A DNA stretch of 64,000 nucleotides from an uncultured Bacillales bacterium (GTDB lineage: Bacteria; Bacillota_I; Bacilli_A; RFN20; CAG-826), in the NCBI GenBank assembly GCA_946414655.1, contig CAMKPL010000002.1:133765-197764 (forward strand), written 5' to 3'. Every line of letters starts with the position of its first letter. The stretch's first letter is position 1. Shown here in pieces: positions 18,800 to 58,832 of this stretch. The notes below the pieces were generated by a model that worked only from the letters and a program-made list of their open reading frames with translations, was not told the DNA's origin and did no database searches. The position numbers and the translations under genes were made by a program.

Positions 18800-18967
18800 A
18801 ATATGGTTTACATTTGTAAAAAAATGTTTACAAACACTTTCATTAATAATATATTAATAAGCGTTGTCGCCTCACAAGCTACAACCGCATAGAAAAGGTA
18901 ACTAACTTATTACTCATAGTAATAGACCTTAATAGCGAGTCTTGAGTGAGAAAGTCGAGGTATATTT
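18800..18967 (+). promoter_or_regulatory. rplU 5' leader region containing two short palindromes; possible L21-leader autoregulatory RNA.
   Basis: Palindrome TTTGTAAA-N7-TTTACAAA overlaps a TTTACA(-35)-17-TATATT(-10) promoter. Second palindrome ATTACTCATAGTAAT. The 168-nt untranslated leader is typical of Firmicute rplU operons. Confidence 0.3.
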
Positions 18968-42329: not shown

Positions 42330-42358
42330 ATAGTAGTTATTTAGTAGATTATTAGTAA
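42330..42358 (+). repeat. Site a of the 11-bp-periodic TTAGTAG heptamer direct-repeat motif (ATAGTAGttatTTAGTAGattaTTAGTAAatg), ending at the dxs ATG.
   Basis: Heptamers at 42330, 42341 and 42352 with 11-bp spacing. Related sites at about 49852 and about 58622. Confidence 0.55.
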
Positions 42359-44221
42359 ATGTCTAGAAAGAAAGTTAACAATGTTAAACACGTTAATTTA
42401 AACGAAATCAAAGATCCATCATTTTTGAAGAATCTTTCGTATGCTGAGCTCAACGTTCTTGCTGACGATATTCGTAAAGAAATTATCCGCTGTACTGCCA
42501 AGAATGGTGGACACCTTTCTAGTAATCTCGGAGTAGTGGAATTAACCATTGCTATCGAACATTTCTTTGATTTATCAAAGGACAAACTAATTTTCGATGT
42601 TGGTCACCAATGTTACACACACAAAATCTTAACTGGACGTCCTCTTGAAACATTAAGACAAACAAACGGTATTTCTGGTTTCCAGAAAATCGATGAATCA
42701 ACCTATGACTGTTTTGATGCTGGACATTCTTCAACATCAATTTCCGTAGCAAATGGCTTTGCCATTGCTCGTGATTTAAAAGGTGAAAACTATAATGTCA
42801 TCGCTCTAATTGGCGATGGATCTATTCCTTCTGGATTAGCTTTTGAAGGACTCAATAACATTGCTAGTGGAAAAAATAAAGTTGTTATCATTTTAAATGA
42901 TAATGGTATGTCTATTTCTAAACCTGTTGGTGCTTTATCAAAGTCATTTGGCCGAATTTCAACTGCAGCAGGTTATAACCGTATTAAATACGGATATCGC
43001 CGAGCAATGTTTAAAACCAAAGTCGGTAAGAAGATTTATAATCTTACTTTAAGAATTAAGAACTGGTTTAAACGCCATCTTACTTCCCCAAATATTTTTA
43101 CCGATCTTGGTTTTGCCTATATTGGTCCGGTTGATGGACACGACATTCGAAAGCTTGAAAAAGCATTTAAACGAATTGGAAACACTGAAAAATCAGTGGT
43201 CGTTCATGTATGTACTACCAAAGGTAAAGGCTACGAATTAGCTGAAAACGACAACACCGGATCATGGCATGGAGTTGCCCCATTCAAGATTCAAGATGGT
43301 GTACCTTTAAAATCATCAAATCACGTTAGTTGGTCGAAAGTCTTTGCTGACCTATCTCTTGAAGAGATGAAGAAACATCAAGATGCATTTTTAATCTCTC
43401 CAGCGACAACTGTGGGCGCAGAAATGGAAGAGGTTTTAAAACAATTCCCGGAGAGAAGTCTTGATGTCGGCATTGCCGAAGAACATGCCGCAACACTTTC
43501 TGGAGCACTTTCTCGCGGTGGTTATCACCCCATTATTTCGATTTATTCAACATTCATGCAGCGTGCTTACGATGAAATATCGCATGACATGTCACGTACT
43601 AAAGCGAATGCGACACTACTGATCGACCGTGCCGGACTAGTTGGACGTGATGGTGAAACTCATCAAGGCATCTATGATGCAGCGTTTTTATCAACAATTC
43701 CAGGTGTTGTTATTACAATGCCTTCGACACGTAAAGAAGCCGAATACCTATATAGCGAATCATTCAACAATCACGGTGTATTTGCGATGCGTTATCCACG
43801 TGCCACATGCATTGAGGAAGGAAAAGAAGAACAACTTTCCTTTGGAAAATGGATTAAAGTACGCGAATCTAAATCAAAGAAAGTTGCGGTGATCTCTGTT
43901 GGACATCTCACTCATGAGTTGAATCAACTGGTTGAGGAAAAGCGTCTAGATTGCACAATTTATAACGCTATTTTCATTAATCCAGTTGATGAGGATGCTT
44001 TGAAGAGCCTCCTCTCATATGATAAAATCGTCATTTACGATGCGTATAGCACCCAAGGAGGCCTTGTTTCGCTCGTGACGCTTAAATTATCGCAACTAAA
44101 ATTTAAAGGGCTTATTTCGGCTCGTTGTGTACCAAACGTTTTTGTCAAGCAAGCAACAATCACGGAACAACTCGAATCTTTTGGATTGCTTCCAAGACAA
44201 ATTTTAGAAGAACTTAAATAA
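42359..44221 (+). CDS. dxs: 1-deoxy-D-xylulose-5-phosphate synthase
   Basis: 'DPSFLKNLSYAELNVLADDIR' N-terminus. ThDP motif 'GDGSIPSGLAFEGLNN'. Transketolase-like domains. No Shine-Dalgarno; the start abuts the repeat motif. Confidence 0.85.
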   Translation: MSRKKVNNVKHVNLNEIKDPSFLKNLSYAELNVLADDIRKEIIRCTAKNGGHLSSNLGVVELTIAIEHFFDLSKDKLIFDVGHQCYTHKILTGRPLETLRQTNGISGFQKIDESTYDCFDAGHSSTSISVANGFAIARDLKGENYNVIALIGDGSIPSGLAFEGLNNIASGKNKVVIILNDNGMSISKPVGALSKSFGRISTAAGYNRIKYGYRRAMFKTKVGKKIYNLTLRIKNWFKRHLTSPNIFTDLGFAYIGPVDGHDIRKLEKAFKRIGNTEKSVVVHVCTTKGKGYELAENDNTGSWHGVAPFKIQDGVPLKSSNHVSWSKVFADLSLEEMKKHQDAFLISPATTVGAEMEEVLKQFPERSLDVGIAEEHAATLSGALSRGGYHPIISIYSTFMQRAYDEISHDMSRTKANATLLIDRAGLVGRDGETHQGIYDAAFLSTIPGVVITMPSTRKEAEYLYSESFNNHGVFAMRYPRATCIEEGKEEQLSFGKWIKVRESKSKKVAVISVGHLTHELNQLVEEKRLDCTIYNAIFINPVDEDALKSLLSYDKIVIYDAYSTQGGLVSLVTLKLSQLKFKGLISARCVPNVFVKQATITEQLESFGLLPRQILEELK

Positions 44222-44225
44222 AAAG

Positions 44226-44268
44226 TCATTCGTGTTATGGTTAACATAATATTGAATGATTTTTTTAT
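44226..44268 (+). terminator. Terminator-like hairpin after dxs
   Basis: TCATTC...GAATGA outer stem followed by TTTTTTT. Confidence 0.45.
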
Positions 44269-44286: not shown

Positions 44287-45480
44287 ATGAGTAAAATCAT
44301 TTTGCATATTGATCTCAACACCTTCTTTGTTCGTTGCGAAGAACTTGTTAATCCATCCTTAGAAGGCCAGCCAGTTATTATTGGTCATAGCGGTCGTGGC
44401 GGAATTGTTTCAACATGTTCATATGAAGCAAGAAAATACGGTGTGCATAGTGGTCAGCCAACATTTAAAGCTCTCGAACTTTGTCCAAATGCGATTGTTA
44501 TTCATGGACATTACGAACTTTATAGTCGTAAATCAAAAGAGTTCTTTAACTATGTTAAGCAGTACTCTAAAATCATCGAAAAAGCCTCCATTGATGAATG
44601 TTATGTCGATATGACAAAGCAGCTTTCAAATGTGAAAGATGTTGTGGCGTATCTAAAAGAATTCCAAAATAAATTACTTCAAACAGTTGGACTTAAATGT
44701 TCAATTGGCGTTGCTCCAACCAAATTCCTTGCCAAAATGGCAAGCGATATGAAGAAACCAATGGGAATCACCATTATTCGCCGTCGAGATGTTCGTAAAA
44801 TGCTTGATCCACTTCCGATTTCTTCCTTCTATGGAATCGGTAAAAAGACTGCTCCGAGATTAGAAGCAATGGGCGTTAAGACAATTGGTGATTTAGCAAA
44901 GCTAATTAATTCTGATGAACCATCAGTTAAGCAAGCATTCGGCAAATTTTACTATGTCATTAAGGATTGGATTAACGGATATGGTAGCGATGAAGTTGAT
45001 GTCGAACCATGGGATCCAAAATCCATTGGCCACTCGACAACATTTGTCAGCGATTCAACAGATTTTGATGAAATCCGAGGTTATTTAAAAGATCTTGCTA
45101 AAGAAGTATCCGATGAAGCCAAAGAAAAAGGCAAAATCGGATTTAATGTTCAACTTGTCTTAAAGACAAACGAATTCAAAACAATTAATCGTTCAGTCAA
45201 ATTGCCTAAACCAACAAACGATTTTGAAACAATTTATAATGAGGCTTCGATTCTTTTAGAAAAGAACCTTAATGGTCAAGAAATTCGTCTATGTGGTGTA
45301 ACGCTACAAAATCTGATTTATGCTTCTGATTATGTTGAACAGTTATCAATTTTTGATAATTATGAAGACGACGAGAAGAATGCGACAAGAGATTTAATTC
45401 GTGAACTGAACCGGAAGATGAAGGGAGCCAAGTTTATGCGAGCCTCGGACATCCTTAAGGAGAAGAGAAATGGACATTAA
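44287..45480 (+). CDS. dinB: DNA polymerase IV (Y-family)
   Basis: 'ILHIDLNTFFVRCEE', catalytic 'SIDECYVDMT', little-finger domain. Confidence 0.85.
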   Translation: MSKIILHIDLNTFFVRCEELVNPSLEGQPVIIGHSGRGGIVSTCSYEARKYGVHSGQPTFKALELCPNAIVIHGHYELYSRKSKEFFNYVKQYSKIIEKASIDECYVDMTKQLSNVKDVVAYLKEFQNKLLQTVGLKCSIGVAPTKFLAKMASDMKKPMGITIIRRRDVRKMLDPLPISSFYGIGKKTAPRLEAMGVKTIGDLAKLINSDEPSVKQAFGKFYYVIKDWINGYGSDEVDVEPWDPKSIGHSTTFVSDSTDFDEIRGYLKDLAKEVSDEAKEKGKIGFNVQLVLKTNEFKTINRSVKLPKPTNDFETIYNEASILLEKNLNGQEIRLCGVTLQNLIYASDYVEQLSIFDNYEDDEKNATRDLIRELNRKMKGAKFMRASDILKEKRNGH

Positions 45481-46348
45481 TCGCGCTAAAGAACTCTTCT
45501 TCCAACATCTTCGCGTTGAAAAAGGTCTCTCTGAAGATACTGTTCTTTCCTATGCTTACGATATTAACGAATTCTTTAAAGAATTCAAATATAAAGATAC
45601 TGAAGATATCCTTCCAACAGATATTGGCGATTTTATACGCATTCAAAGTAAAAACAAGATGGCCACAGCAACGATTGCTCGTCGTCTATCTTCTTTAAAA
45701 AACTTCTACATTTTCCTAGAAAAAGAAGATTTTATTCATCTTCCAATGAGGGATGTCGAAACACCAAAAGGAGTGAAGCATTTGCCATCAGTACTTAGTA
45801 TTGAACAAGTTGAGCAACTTCTTGATGCCCCTGATTTAAACAAGGACGAAGGAGTTCGCGATCGAGCAATGCTTGAGCTAATGTATGCATCGGGACTCCG
45901 TGTTAGTGAACTGCTTTCATTAAAAATGAAAAACATTTCTTTCGAGAGAAATATTGTCACGGTAATTGGTAAAGGAAATAAACAAAGAAAAGTTCCTTTT
46001 GGAGATTTTGCAAAGGATTATCTTGTTCAATATATTGACCATGCTCGAAAAAAGAATCCTGGTTCAAGAACTGACTATGTTTTCTTAAATCGATATGGAA
46101 AACCATTATCTAGACAATACTTCTTTTTACAAGTAAAAAAGTATGCCGAACAAGTCGGAATAAAAGAAGATATTTCACCTCATACATTACGGCATTGTTT
46201 TGCAACCCACCTTCTTGAATCCAGTGCGGATATCCGAACTGTTCAAGAAATGCTTGGACATAGCAATATTGCTACAACCCAGATTTATTTAAATATCTCT
46301 ACGCGACGTATCCTTGAAGCGTATGATTTGTATAGCAAACGAAAATAG
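45470..46348 (+). CDS. xerD: Tyrosine recombinase XerD (XerC/D family)
   Basis: Catalytic R..HxxR..Y: '[36 protein letters not shown]'. A xerD-deoB adjacency is also found in B. subtilis. Overlaps dinB by 11 nt. Confidence 0.75.
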
Positions 46349-48195: not shown

Positions 48196-49108
48196 GTCTA
48201 TGAAAACAAAGAAATTATTTTTACTCCCAGCACTCCTTCTAGCTGGCTGCTCTATCGATAGTCAGGAAAAACTATCCATTCTTACTCCAACGGGCGCTCC
48301 AGCGGTCGTTTTTGCATCGTTTTTAAACGATTCTAACTTCAAAGTCATTGATCAACCAGCGAATATTATTGCCCAAATGGTCAATGAAAATGTCGATATC
48401 GCTGTTTTACCAACAAACGTCGGAGTTCAGCAAATTGCAAAAGGTCTCAAGTACAAAATTGCTTCAACAATCACATTTGGAAACCTATTTATTTGTTCGA
48501 CTGGACTAGATGAAGACGGCGTTATGGGTGATGACGATTATATCGTCTCATTCCAGGAAAATGCTGTTCCAGACAAAATATATAAGGCTGTTTATGATGT
48601 AGCAGTTGATTATTACGCAACAAATGCCCAAGAAGCTGCAAAGTGTTTAAAACTAAAACGCGATGTTGTGAATAGCAAAGATGTTGATTATGTCTTAATG
48701 GCTGAACCAGCTATTAGCAAACAAGAATCTATCGGAACTGACTTTAGCATTTATGCTAATCTTCAAGAACAATATCAGACGAAGTACGATAATCAACAAA
48801 TCTTTCAAGCCTCAATTTTTGTTCGTGATTCATTATCTCATGAGCAAGTTGATCCTTATTTAGGTCGTATTAAATCCTATGTTTCTTCCTTAAAAGCTAA
48901 TCCTTCTCTTTTAGAGAATGCAAAACAATTAGACCCAAACGCCGAAACAACTTTAGGAATTGATATTGCAGCAACTGTGGCGGCAATTAAAAAAGATAAT
49001 GCCATCGGTATCGGTTATGAAGTTGCCTATGAACACAAACACGAGATTGATACATTCTTAAAAATCTTTGGCATGACGGAGACTAATGAAGAAATTTATT
49101 ACAAATAA
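48194..49108 (+). CDS. ABC transporter substrate-binding lipoprotein, NMT1/THI5-like/NitT-TauT-type fold; specificity unknown.
   Basis: Lipobox 'LLLAGCS'. GTG start in track. 304 aa. Confidence 0.6.
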   Translation: MSMKTKKLFLLPALLLAGCSIDSQEKLSILTPTGAPAVVFASFLNDSNFKVIDQPANIIAQMVNENVDIAVLPTNVGVQQIAKGLKYKIASTITFGNLFICSTGLDEDGVMGDDDYIVSFQENAVPDKIYKAVYDVAVDYYATNAQEAAKCLKLKRDVVNSKDVDYVLMAEPAISKQESIGTDFSIYANLQEQYQTKYDNQQIFQASIFVRDSLSHEQVDPYLGRIKSYVSSLKANPSLLENAKQLDPNAETTLGIDIAATVAAIKKDNAIGIGYEVAYEHKHEIDTFLKIFGMTETNEEIYYK

Positions 49109-49862
49109 GTATTTCTTAATTTTTTCAGGAATAGTTTTACTATTTGGACTGTGGTTTTTAGCAACGCTTATCTTTGATAAGAACTCAATGATTTTTCCAT
49201 CTCCGATTGTTACTTTTGATGCATTAATTCAACTTTTAGGGGTTGGCTATACATATCAATGTTTAGCTTATTCTGTGCTGAAGATGTTGATCGGATTTGG
49301 ATTGGGATTTATTGTGGCGTTTATTCTCGCACTTATTGTGCGTGATAATGACCATTTGTACACATTATTCTCACCAATCATTACAGCCTTAAAAGCCATT
49401 CCAACAGCAGCGATTGTCTTTTTGTTCGTTGTTTTAGTGGATGCCGAATATGCTCCATGTTTTCTTGTAATGATTTTATCATTACCAATCTTATATGAAT
49501 CGCTTGTTAACGGTATGAGAAATATTGATCCTCAAATTCTTGATGCTGTGAAAATCGATGGTGGTAAAGGAATACAAAAGCTCTTTCGTGTTCAACTACC
49601 TTTAGCGCTCCCATATCTGCTTGTCGGTATCATTTCGTCGTTTTCTCTATCTTTTAAGATAGAAATCATGTCTGAAATTGTTACCGGATATACACGTAAC
49701 GGTTTAGGAAGTTTGATTAAATCTGTGCAAATCAATGACCCAACAAATATGGCAGCCATTTTTGCATATTCTTTAATCGCAATTATATTGATGATCATTG
49801 TTTCTATTCCGGCATCTTACTTAAGAAATAAAGTGGCAGTGAAAGCTGGAATTAGTAGATAA
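49086..49862 (+). CDS. ABC transporter permease (binding-protein-dependent, TauC/SsuC-like). No cognate ATPase gene is adjacent.
   Basis: 6 TM helices. EAA-like loop 'KIDGGKGIQKLFRVQLP'. Overlaps the SBP gene. Confidence 0.65.
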   Translation: MKKFITNKYFLIFSGIVLLFGLWFLATLIFDKNSMIFPSPIVTFDALIQLLGVGYTYQCLAYSVLKMLIGFGLGFIVAFILALIVRDNDHLYTLFSPIITALKAIPTAAIVFLFVVLVDAEYAPCFLVMILSLPILYESLVNGMRNIDPQILDAVKIDGGKGIQKLFRVQLPLALPYLLVGIISSFSLSFKIEIMSEIVTGYTRNGLGSLIKSVQINDPTNMAAIFAYSLIAIILMIIVSIPASYLRNKVAVKAGISR

Positions 49863-49882
49863 TTAGTAGTTGTTATCCACTC
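49852..49882 (+). repeat. Site b of the TTAGTAG 11-mer repeat motif (TTAGTAGATAA-TTAGTAGTTGT), overlapping the permease stop codon and abutting the DnaA-box-like TTATCCACT.
   Basis: The two 11-mers are identical to the two 11-mers found at site c. Confidence 0.55.
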
Positions 49883-49934
49883 ATTTATATGTGGAAAAGT
49901 CCTAGTTCAGGGCTTTTTCTTTAGTTAATTGATA

Positions 49935-49975
49935 TAAAGGAAATAAATAAAAAAGAACGATTAATTCGCTCTTTC
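49935..49975 (-). terminator. Probable rho-independent terminator (minus strand) after rsfS
   Basis: On the minus strand: AAGAGCG-aauuaau-CGUUCUU (one G-U pair) followed by UUUUUUAUUUAUUU. Confidence 0.4.
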
Positions 49976-50011
49976 TTGGTATTTGGTTAACATAATATCT
50001 ATTATGCGAAG

Positions 50012-50338
50012 TTATCTCTTTTTCGGACTTTCTAAAACTTGCTCAATGGAAACTCTCTCGCGTTCTTCTTTGGAGAAAATATTCACAATAACATGATAAG
50101 CATCGATCAAAATCCATCCAGATTCTGGAGTTCCTTCTTTGTGCGAGTAATTGACTTTCTTTTCCTCGAGCTTATCGATGATAGCGTCAGCCAATGCTCC
50201 GAGTTGACGAACGTTTGTCGCTGAACAAAGAACATAATATTCCGCGAAAGGCGTTCTTTCTGAGACATCAATTACTGAAATATCTTCTGCTTTATGATCA
50301 GAAAGAACTTTTTTAACCATTTGAACAACTTTATCCAT
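50012..50338 (-). CDS. rsfS: Ribosomal silencing factor RsfS (YqeL/Iojap)
   Basis: 108 aa. 'DKKAEDI...IDV...FADYFVICSGTS'-type pattern ('AEDISVIDVSERTPFAEYYVLCSATN'). Confidence 0.85.
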   Translation of the reverse strand: MDKVVQMVKKVLSDHKAEDISVIDVSERTPFAEYYVLCSATNVRQLGALADAIIDKLEEKKVNYSHKEGTPESGWILIDAYHVIVNIFSKEERERVSIEQVLESPKKR

Positions 50339-57884: not shown

Positions 57885-58625
57885 ATGGATATTATTTTAT
57901 ATAATATAATCGTCGGTTTTTTATCATTAATTTTAGGTTATTTTTTTGGTTCTATTCCAACAGGAATCATTCTTGGAAAGGTCTTTTTTCATCGTGATCC
58001 ACGTCAAGAAGGGTCAAAAAACTCGGGTGGAACGAACGTCGGAAGACTATTTGGCAAGAAAATTGGCTTACTTTGCATCATCCTCGATATGATCAAAACT
58101 GTGATTCCTTTAATAATTGTTTGGTCAATTATTAAATTCTCTTCCTTAAATCAAGTTTTAGTCGACAACTTTGGTTCAGGCTTATGGAACAACGGAGTCC
58201 TTTATATTTATCTTGCTCCTTTAGGAGCAATGGTTGGACATTGTTATCCTGTGTTTGCGAAGTTTAATGGAGGTAAAGCTGTGGCAACTGTCGCAGGATT
58301 TGTTCTTGCGACATCTTGGTTACTCTCTGTTCTCGGCTTAGCAGTCTTCTTTATAGTTCTAAAAATTAAAAAGTATGTCTCACTTGGTTCAATTGTAACA
58401 ATCATTGCCGTGACACTCGTTGCTTGGATTATGGTCATCGTTAAATACTTTGGTCCAGTCTCATTTGCAAACTTCGGAATGTATGGTTGGGGCGATTATG
58501 TTGTTGCCGGATTTGAGTATGCCGGGGTGATGACATTCGGAGCGGCGTTATTAATCTATAGACACCGCGCAAACATCAAACGATTGGCCAACCATGAAGA
58601 ATCAAAAATTAAGTGGTTAAGTTAG
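57885..58625 (+). CDS. plsY: Glycerol-3-phosphate acyltransferase PlsY
   Basis: 'GSKNSGGTNVGR' motif. Polytopic membrane protein, 246 aa with an internal insertion. Confidence 0.8.
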   Translation: MDIILYNIIVGFLSLILGYFFGSIPTGIILGKVFFHRDPRQEGSKNSGGTNVGRLFGKKIGLLCIILDMIKTVIPLIIVWSIIKFSSLNQVLVDNFGSGLWNNGVLYIYLAPLGAMVGHCYPVFAKFNGGKAVATVAGFVLATSWLLSVLGLAVFFIVLKIKKYVSLGSIVTIIAVTLVAWIMVIVKYFGPVSFANFGMYGWGDYVVAGFEYAGVMTFGAALLIYRHRANIKRLANHEESKIKWLS

Positions 58626-58654
58626 TAGTTGTTTAGTAGCAAATTAGTAGATAA
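58622..58654 (+). repeat. Site c of the TTAGTAG repeat motif: three perfect heptamers at 11-bp spacing (TTAGTAGttgtTTAGTAGcaaaTTAGTAGataatta), overlapping the plsY stop codon.
   Basis: Heptamers at 58622, 58633 and 58644. A perfect DnaA-box 9-mer (TGTGGATAA = rc TTATCCACA) lies 35 bp downstream at about 58685-58693. Confidence 0.6.
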
Positions 58655-58670
58655 TTACACTGTTGATAAA

Positions 58671-58738
58671 ACACTCATCGTTATTGTGGATAAACAAATT
58701 ATTCCGATTTGATGGGTGTTTTTCATTGACACTTTTTA
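58671..58738 (+). terminator. Possible long-loop terminator for plsY
   Basis: AAACACUCAUC...GAUGGGUGUUU (11 bp, one G-U pair) followed by UUUUU. Confidence 0.3.
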
Positions 58739-58800
58739 AAATCGTCAACGTACCACTACCACTACTGCTCAAAATTTTTATATAGCAAAATCGGGCACAA

Positions 58801-58832
58801 AAAAAGCGCCCGTTTAAGGCGCTTAATTTGCT
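58801..58832 (-). terminator. Rho-independent terminator after yneF (minus strand)
   Basis: AAGCGCC-uuaaacg-GGCGCUU followed by UUUUUUUG on the minus strand. Confidence 0.55.

Follow-up and report, generated by a model that had tools for sequence, protein, structure and literature searches.

A TTAGTAG repeat array and a DnaA-type box next to chromosomal dif in low-GC Bacillota: a conserved, putative protein-binding module

What is a pair of TTAGTAG repeats, running directly into a sequence that resembles a DnaA box, doing at the end of an ATP-binding cassette (ABC) permease gene? The question is raised by a 64,000-nucleotide (nt) stretch of DNA from an uncultured Bacillales bacterium (contig CAMKPL010000002.1, positions 133,765 to 197,764 of the forward strand), referred to here as the window, in which an earlier note had drawn attention to these repeats (array b, 49852-49873, + strand). 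By sequence comparison, array b is the outer part of a non-coding module of ~170 bp that is attached to dif, the chromosome dimer-resolution site. That such a conserved, dif-linked and putatively protein-binding module exists can be held with considerable confidence. The fuller statement, in which the module would bind proteins predicted from its motifs and serve as an accessory to Xer recombination, comes close to probable without reaching it.

The array, dif and the boxes between them

Array b consists of two head-to-tail units, each made of the heptamer TTAGTAG and a 4-nt AT-rich spacer: TTAGTAGATAA (49852-49862) and TTAGTAGTTGT (49863-49873), followed on the + strand by TATCCACTC. The open reading frame (ORF) of the ABC permease (49086-49862, 258 amino acids (aa)) ends within the first unit, where its TAA stop codon occupies 49860-49862. 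An exact record of the permease sequence was not found. The coordinates, the heptamer content and the position of the stop codon were all as the earlier note had described them. The overlap with the stop codon, although real, is nevertheless incidental: other species have deoB or a crp-like gene upstream, ending 3-185 nt before the array. Both 11-mers do recur in swapped order at a second site of the window, array c (58622 and 58644), but the significance attached to the swap did not survive comparison, because the identity between the b and c spacers is not kept in other strains (the first unit of c has TTCA or TTCT). The suggestion that the repeats are modular binding units rather than a duplicated segment is, as a prediction, well borne out, since orthologous sites in many species retain the heptamer core and the 11-bp period but differ in the 4-nt spacers. 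A recent duplication between b and c is ruled out, as the spacers vary among strains and species and the core and phase persist. Judged by this persistence, the conserved traits of the array are the heptamer and the 11-bp phase.

On its own, the heptamer shows no enrichment in the window (seven found vs. 5.4 expected). Phased pairs exactly 11 bp apart, with at most one mismatch, number five, all on the + strand and in three clusters, at 42330, 49852 and 58622. When the window was scanned for tandem units with a position weight matrix (PWM), the three arrays scored 20.8-23.8 (23.8 for array b), against 9.6 for the next best place and a maximum of 18.8 over 30 shuffles. A chance origin of the arrays is ruled out by the number of phased pairs and by the PWM and shuffle test. 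The 91 units compared hardly vary at positions 1-6, have G or A at position 7 and are A/T-rich at positions 8-11; these unit statistics are partly circular, as some loci were found via the motif itself. Neither the distance to dif nor the register depends on the search patterns.

The dif site (49985-50012, - strand; 5'-ACTTCGCATAA TAGATA TTATGTTAACC-3') starts 112 bp downstream of array b and is built of two 11-bp arms around a 6-bp centre. It matches the experimentally defined dif sites of E. coli and B. subtilis at 21/28 and 22/28 positions, respectively (reference sequences from PMC3025954). It is the one full site in the window, lies exactly at the switch from + to - gene orientation, and is present in all orthologous loci. 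A gene for an XerD-like, Xer-type tyrosine recombinase (45470-46348, + strand, 292 aa) is found 3.6 kb away; its product scores 303 bits against the tyrosine recombinase family NF001399 (cut-off 279) and 324 bits against the XerD family TIGR02225, below the cut-off of 329.6. In addition, an isolated XerD-arm half-site, GGTTAACATAA followed by TATTGA (44239-44255, + strand), lies in the dxs/dinB spacer, with an exact 11-mer match and no XerC arm, and is kept at the same place in five species (L140-L143 and L011). It resembles the XDS sites of B. subtilis, at which XerD binds and unloads SMC at the terminus (PMC11894783). On the strength of the identity to the reference sites, the orientation flip, the single copy, the nearby xerD-like gene and the conserved half-site, the 28-mer is dif and the window spans the replication terminus, as far as such features can identify them; the GC skew of the window was uninformative on terminus position. 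The arm adjoining the array (49985-49995) is of the XerD type, being most like the XerD arm (TTATGTTAACC vs. TTATGTTAAAT), and the stop codon of rsfS is in contact with the XerC-type arm (50002-50012). The units of array b start 138 and 127 nt ahead of the A of the ACATAAT motif in dif.

The DnaA-box-like 9-mer reported to abut the array, TTATCCACT (49873-49881, + strand), is real: it matches TTATCCACA at eight of nine positions, and its first T is the last base of the second unit. It is, however, a second and weaker box confined to close relatives, which carry TTATACACA (L159, L173 and L169), TTATCAACA (L140) or TTATTAACA (L154) at this position, and no counterpart was found in the distant species among the dereplicated loci compared. 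The deeply conserved box is instead TGTGGAAAA (49890-49898, + strand), which ends 91 nt before ACATAAT. DnaA boxes follow the consensus TT(A/T)TNCACA, to which TGTGGAAAA, the reverse complement of TTTTCCACA, conforms at all nine positions. Orthologous loci have TGTGGATAA or TGTGGAAAA as the box, and the general form TGTGGAWAA fits the consensus fully because it is the reverse complement of TTWTCCACA; the sole position varying among species (A/T) is the degenerate position of the consensus. The juxtaposition of array and DnaA-box-like sequence is both real and conserved across relatives, and the box is a predicted site of DnaA or of a protein with the same specificity. TGTGGAWAA occurs four times in the window, twice directly after arrays b and c and in the same sense. 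Of 22 arrays, 5 (vs. ~1.6 expected) have a DnaA-like box with at most one mismatch no more than 100 nt away, all of them at b- and c-type sites.

Conservation and fixed geometry of the module

RsfS homologues led to four syntenic loci (L140-L143), with RsfS identities of 82, 71, 65 and 57%, respectively. All four carry the dif-facing array, with a degenerate first unit (AGAGTAG) in L142, and all four carry an array ending on the dxs start codon. The array at plsY is clear, with three units, in L140 and L141 and irregularly spaced in L142, and the L143 locus stops short of plsY. An unbiased scan for three phased units, in which each species was represented by one genome, yielded at least 16 loci in low-GC metagenome-assembled genomes (MAGs) labelled 'Bacilli', Erysipelotrichaceae or Mollicutes. 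Among the matches listed, 8 of 16 fall in the dif-centred block (L023, L061, L089, L104, L106, L122, L124 and L137).

Metagenomes were then scanned with the pattern TTAGTAG-N4-TTAGTAG-N(5-35)-TGTGGAWAA, from which dif was left out. At least 46 of the 54 matches are dif-linked: 43 have a dif-like site 85-97 nt after the box, and three more have one at 80 nt, at 84 nt or with a deviant arm. Among the remaining matches, three are of the plsY type and three are unrelated, and none of the 54 places the composite of array and box in an origin-like setting. The gene upstream is a permease, deoB or a crp-like gene, RsfS identity goes down to ~30%, and GC content ranges from 0.29 to 0.48.

Dereplication at 85% identity left 40 loci, including the window and L140-143/L061, in 37 of which the distance from box to dif could be scored. 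From the end of the box to the A of ACATAAT, it is 91 nt in 17 loci, 90 in 12, 92 in 5, 93 in 2 and 94 in 1. Relative to dif, the box occupies -100 to -92 and the units begin at -148/-137/-126/(-115), all in one 11-bp register. The start of a unit precedes the start of the box by 15, 26, 37 or 48 nt, and one common phase accommodates 67 of 73 units to within 1 nt. Between box and dif, the length is kept but not the sequence, the exception being a semi-conserved palindrome, tCGATTAAWTC, ~33 nt before ACATAAT (CGAT at -32 in 19 of the 40 dereplicated loci). For example, five haplotypes of the window's species carry many substitutions in this spacer, and in each of them the distance is 91 nt. This conservation of length without sequence points to a constraint on spacing and phasing between proteins bound at both ends.

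Some species have additional boxes 10 or 19-21 bp away, and L141 has three or four, a perfect TTATCCACA among them. In 8 of the 40 loci (L141, L156, L161, L163, L166, L168 and L181 being among them), dif is also bracketed by boxes, as an inverted DnaA-type box (TTATCCACA, TTATCCACT or TTTTCCACA) lies beyond the XerC arm, at 40-59 nt from the A of ACATAAT. No such box is present in the window, where rsfS abuts dif. On the array side of dif, the two boxes that are inverted relative to each other (TTATCCACT and TGTGGAAAA in the window) lack compensatory change, which argues for two protein sites rather than a hairpin.

A further motif, AAGTGG(C/T)AG(T/A)G, recurs 10-40 nt upstream of dif-linked arrays (window 49828-49851, L142, L161, L169, L174, L176 and L187). 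In the window, it encodes the last permease codons (KVAVKAGISR*), and the tail of this ORF, therefore, seems to enter conserved non-coding DNA.

Arrays away from dif and the surroundings of the module

Repeats of the same kind occur at other sites. Array a (42330-42362, + strand) has three units between xseB and dxs, the third of which overlaps the dxs ATG (42359), and no box follows it. Its orthologues end on the dxs start codon in L140-L143, L104, L106 and L124. Array c (58622-58693, + strand) has three units over the plsY TAG stop codon, with TTAGTAGCAAA in the middle between the 11-mers at 58622 and 58644, followed by a perfect DnaA box, TGTGGATAA (58685-58693), and dif is absent; orthologues with array and box after plsY are found in L140, L141, L142, L122 and L147. 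Array d (L001:293), between glyS and dnaG, lies just outside the window. Other arrays without a box are located at start codons (dxs in eight species, dinB, dnaG and yqeG) or 65-97 nt upstream of ftsA, and arrays without dif are also found near tkt and nrdF. In the eight species, the dxs gene has no recognisable Shine-Dalgarno sequence and its ATG follows the first base of the last TTAGTAG unit by 5-9 nt; the start codons of dinB (L089), dnaG (L001) and yqeG (L137) are placed in the same way. A census of Shine-Dalgarno sequences was too crude, because ORF starts are uncertain.

The window's species has four arrays in the interval from -8 to +23 kb around dif, the remaining 42 kb of the window being free of them, and many dif-less arrays lie at most ~25 kb from dif. 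Orientation is mostly that of the neighbouring gene, and the exceptions are reverse arrays upstream of tkt (L106 and L124), at nrdE/nrdF (L051), at one ftsA locus (L129) and beside plsY (L162/L172). These reverse arrays make a DNA-level protein site likelier than an RNA element. In two genomes (L104/L023, which form one contig, and L137), the nearest flanking arrays converge on dif, but array c breaks this pattern in the window's species. Neither orientation rule, 'always with transcription' or 'always towards dif', is without exceptions.

The stretch that follows site c in the window (58655-58830) contains a large hairpin with a T-run, a conserved, -35-like ATTGACA and the CCAC-rich TACCACTACCACTACTGC, between two terminators. 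It is also found in L140, L141, L122 and L142, with variants of TACCACTACCACTACTGC in other species, and may correspond to a small unannotated transcript, for which Rfam gave no match. A separate and much larger family was seen in Bacteroidales/Paludibacteraceae MAGs from rumen and gut (within L021-L139, e.g., L022, L031, L042, L044, L050, L055, L082, L086, L090 and L135), where 3-8 copies of TTAGTAGGTGA or TTAGTAGGTTA share the heptamer and the 11-bp period and have a G-rich spacer. Several such arrays occur per genome, usually 100-170 nt upstream of housekeeping genes (typA, ssb, pfkA, cinA and maf), and often with TAGTATGCGATTAGTATG before and GTTATAATCGGTATCATC after them.

The window has 37% GC and Firmicute-type genes. 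On the + strand, tkt-nusB-xseAB-dxs-dinB-xerD-deoB are followed by a crp-like gene (- strand) and by the genes of an ABC binding protein and the permease (+ strand). These face rsfS-nadD/yqeK-yqeH-yqeG-parC-parE on the - strand, beyond which lie plsY (+ strand), yneF and efp. Within the convergent permease/rsfS spacer, the order is array b, TTATCCACT, TGTGGAAAA, + strand terminator, - strand terminator and dif. The intrinsic terminator of the ABC-transporter operon (49893-49919, + strand) has 11 pairs and a T-run, with an RNA fold z of -2.9, and its left arm overlaps the box. That of the rsfS operon (49949-49977, - strand) contains the palindrome tCGATTAAtTCg, ~33 nt before ACATAAT; it is located after dif, which is thus transcribed as a 3' untranslated region (UTR). 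The top of its stem and its loop form the palindrome CGATTAATCG, whose sequence and position are kept in distant species, which is unusual in terminators. The central hexamer of dif (49996-50001) varies within the species (TATCTA, TATCCC or TATACA in the window and in L001, L002/L012, L011 and L015), and both arms are invariant.

Several other identities were considered and set aside. Rfam searches at gathering thresholds returned nothing near site b, where the matches were sub-threshold (E = 0.1-0.6), and the sole family above threshold in the window is the ribosomal protein L21 leader (RF00559, 43.8 bits, 18873-18952, + strand). An RNA family, riboswitch or small RNA was rejected on the lack of an Rfam match and because folding is limited to the terminator; no stable conserved RNA fold was found at site b beyond the terminator. 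A promoter was rejected as well: no sigma-70-like site accompanies the arrays, and b and c are situated between convergent genes with terminators. Origin from a mobile element, plasmid or phage was dismissed after blastn of 49830-50020 against PLSDB (72,556 plasmids) and INPHARED gave no match, and a scan of viral sequences gave generic perfect tandem repeats only. An iteron-type replication origin does not fit either, given that there is no rep gene, that the flanks are core housekeeping genes in conserved order and that no plasmid or phage matched. As for a KOPS/SRS-type role of the box, GTGGAWAA is present eight times on the + strand and eight times on the - strand, with no switch of polarity at dif, and TTAGTAG is not over-represented.

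Possible functions and related systems

In the mechanism proposed here, the heptamer array would be bound along a single helix face by several protomers of the same sequence-specific protein, one per helical turn, with an architecture such as that of OmpR/PhoB-type regulators or of ribbon-helix-helix proteins such as ParR. The box would be occupied by DnaA or by a protein of the same specificity. The two would build a nucleoprotein complex of fixed geometry on the XerD-arm side of dif, contacting or positioning XerCD, and the DNA that carries it would act as accessory sequences that set when or how dimer resolution (or another XerD-dependent function of the terminus) takes place. The same array-binding protein may also act at other, mostly terminus-proximal sites (dxs, plsY, dnaG, yqeG and others). 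The Xer-accessory function specifically is a tentative proposal, possible rather than probable, and several points weigh against it. The module is on the XerD-arm side of dif, whereas the accessory sequences of the plasmid sites cer and psi are on the XerC side, and it is difficult to see how a cer-type topological filter could work with dif sites megabases apart on a chromosome dimer. L137 has a b-type array at the right distance and no box. Arrays, and array plus box at plsY, occur without dif, which implies a function that does not need Xer. Finally, a barrier or a role related to DnaA would also be compatible with the array, the box and their spacing.

Xer sites of plasmids depend on ~180 bp of accessory sequence to which PepA binds along with either ArgR or ArcA (PMC9113270). 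In cer (ColE1) and psi (pSC101), ~150-180 bp of one-sided DNA beside a 28-bp XerCD core carries protein sites at fixed distances, and the module likewise has a one-sided flank, from -148 to -92, whose spacing does not vary among 37-40 loci. The 11-bp period of the array described here is also that of the direct repeats which ArcA, an OmpR-family regulator, recognises at psi. The module differs in being chromosomal, in lying on the XerD-arm side and in having motifs of its own (the TTAGTAG array and the DnaA-type box), and no ArgR, ArcA or PepA sites are recognisable in it. As the side of the core, the motifs and the type of replicon differ, it may be said to work like cer and psi, not to be one of them. 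Another partial parallel is offered by the arm-type sites of the lambda-Int family, which are tandem direct repeats about one helical turn apart, at a fixed distance of 100-150 bp from the core. The repeats of the module are also one turn apart at a fixed distance from a tyrosine-recombinase core, but the 292-aa Xer protein here has no extra arm-binding domain, and the same repeats are also found far from any core site.

The sites known around the terminus (Ter/Tus, Ter/RTP, matS/MatP and XDS/XerD; PMC10331603; PMC11894783) are, like these arrays, sequence-specific and concentrated around dif, and an XDS-like half-site lies nearby. They share no sequence similarity with the arrays, which are direct repeats of several units and not a single 23-bp site or a palindrome, and whose orientation pattern is only partly that of a fork trap. 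The DnaA-box clusters outside oriC (the DBCs of B. subtilis, datA and DARS of E. coli) also consist of intergenic consensus boxes, sometimes several and in both orientations. Such clusters are mostly origin-proximal and are not known to be tied to dif, while the module has 1-4 boxes, of which one keeps a distance of 90-94 nt to dif and is paired with the heptamer array. With the basal unwinding system of oriC, the module has in common a TAG-TAG sequence 5' of the box, when this is read as TGTGGATAA, on the same strand (PMC10316083). Its trios are not contiguous (11-nt period), it has no GC cluster, the gap is larger, and it is located at the terminus and not at the origin. In the literature on TTAGTAG repeats, on accessory sequences of Firmicutes dif and on DnaA boxes at dif, no account of such a module was found. 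A repeat array and DnaA-type box tied to a chromosomal dif thus appear to be new, the closest known analogue being cer and psi.

Other functions were weighed against these data. The arrays could be a polar replication-fork barrier, a third kind of Ter system, in which a protein bound head-to-tail stops forks from one side and the copy beside dif fixes their meeting point. In most bacteria no fork trap is known, and dif usually lies between the innermost Ter sites (PMC10331603). The asymmetry of the direct repeats, the four arrays within -8 to +23 kb of dif, the 8 of 16 low-GC Bacilli loci that, among the matches listed, fall in the dif-syntenic block, and the flanking arrays that point to dif in L104/L023 and L137 would all suit a barrier. 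Array c (+8.6 kb), however, has the direction of a and b, which would leave dif outside the trap in this species, and the reverse arrays upstream of tkt, origin-proximal of array a, would block the incoming fork. A barrier does not require helical-register precision with respect to dif, the arrays resemble neither Tus nor RTP Ter sites, and third-codon-position GC skew could not place the fork meeting point (r ~0.04, less than two standard errors), all of which makes a barrier improbable. Near the array sites, no candidate gene for a terminator protein was recognised. The same register argues against ordinary operators of a transcription factor, for instance of the OmpR/PhoB type, with a regulon of dxs, dnaG, yqeG, ftsA, tkt and nrdF and with site b close to dif through conserved gene order. 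The classic site of OmpR/PhoB-type regulators is a 7-bp direct repeat with a 4-bp AT-rich spacer, a description that the arrays, with their 11-bp period, match, and many of them directly precede start codons (that of dxs in eight species, and those of dinB, dnaG, yqeG, tkt and nrdF). Gene regulation does not, however, explain why the register of array b and its distance to dif are fixed over deep divergence, nor why about half of the matches listed in the unbiased scan fall within 1-2% of the genome; sites b and c, moreover, lie between convergent genes with terminators and without a promoter-like site. Operators of this ordinary kind are, for these reasons, an unlikely explanation.

It is decidedly unlikely that the module is primarily a DnaA site with DnaA-trio-like partners, at which DnaA nucleates on TAG-TAG or which titrates or modulates DnaA once per cycle when the terminus is replicated. 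The box fully fits TT(A/T)TNCACA and varies only at the degenerate position, extra boxes occur nearby and inverted beyond dif (three to four in L141), the order 5'-TAGTAG...TGTGGATAA-3' is that of DnaA-trios and boxes in origins, and 8 nt separate the end of the nearest TAGTAG from the box in the most distant group. Yet 11 nt is not a multiple of three, so that a single trio filament cannot be made out of the units. A GC cluster is lacking, and a gap of 8-19 nt precedes the box; on these grounds and that of the period, a DnaA-trio or basal unwinding system proper was rejected. One or two boxes would titrate little DnaA, box-less arrays occur at dxs, dnaG, ftsA and tkt in either orientation, and the fixed distance to dif would be left without a reason. 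Hardly credible is an element acting on RNA or translation, whether through UAG-UAG stops in three frames (11 mod 3 = 2) or as a 3'-UTR or leader site for an RNA-binding protein. Three units do give tandem stops in all three frames, the four arrays of this species have the orientation of the genes beside them and are in contact with a stop or start codon, and dxs has no Shine-Dalgarno sequence. Stops alone, however, need neither the conserved TTAGTA core nor the exact 11-nt phase, reverse arrays exist at tkt, nrdE/nrdF, one ftsA locus and L162/L172, the distance to dif is a property of DNA, and neither an Rfam match nor a stable conserved fold beyond the terminator accompanies the array.

Returning to the dif-linked module as a protein-binding accessory element, its interest lies in the prevailing view that chromosomal dif is a bare 28-bp site under FtsK control and that accessory DNA is a speciality of plasmids. 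A module locked to dif at single-nucleotide precision in very divergent genomes, together with a consensus DnaA box, points to an unrecognised layer of control at the terminus of bacteria without a known Tus or RTP system. In the most far-reaching form of the idea, which is speculative and rather unlikely, it would be part of a terminus machine common to the clade (low-GC Bacillota: Erysipelotrichaceae and related 'Bacilli' MAGs), with DnaA helically phased ~100 bp from dif beside a head-to-tail array, which would couple dimer resolution or fork fusion to initiation or act as a third, independent fork trap. On the practical side, TGTGGAWAA ~91 nt before ACATAAT offers a marker of dif and of the terminus in the fragmentary MAGs of this clade. 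The two short motifs are handles on the links among termination, dimer resolution and, possibly, initiation.

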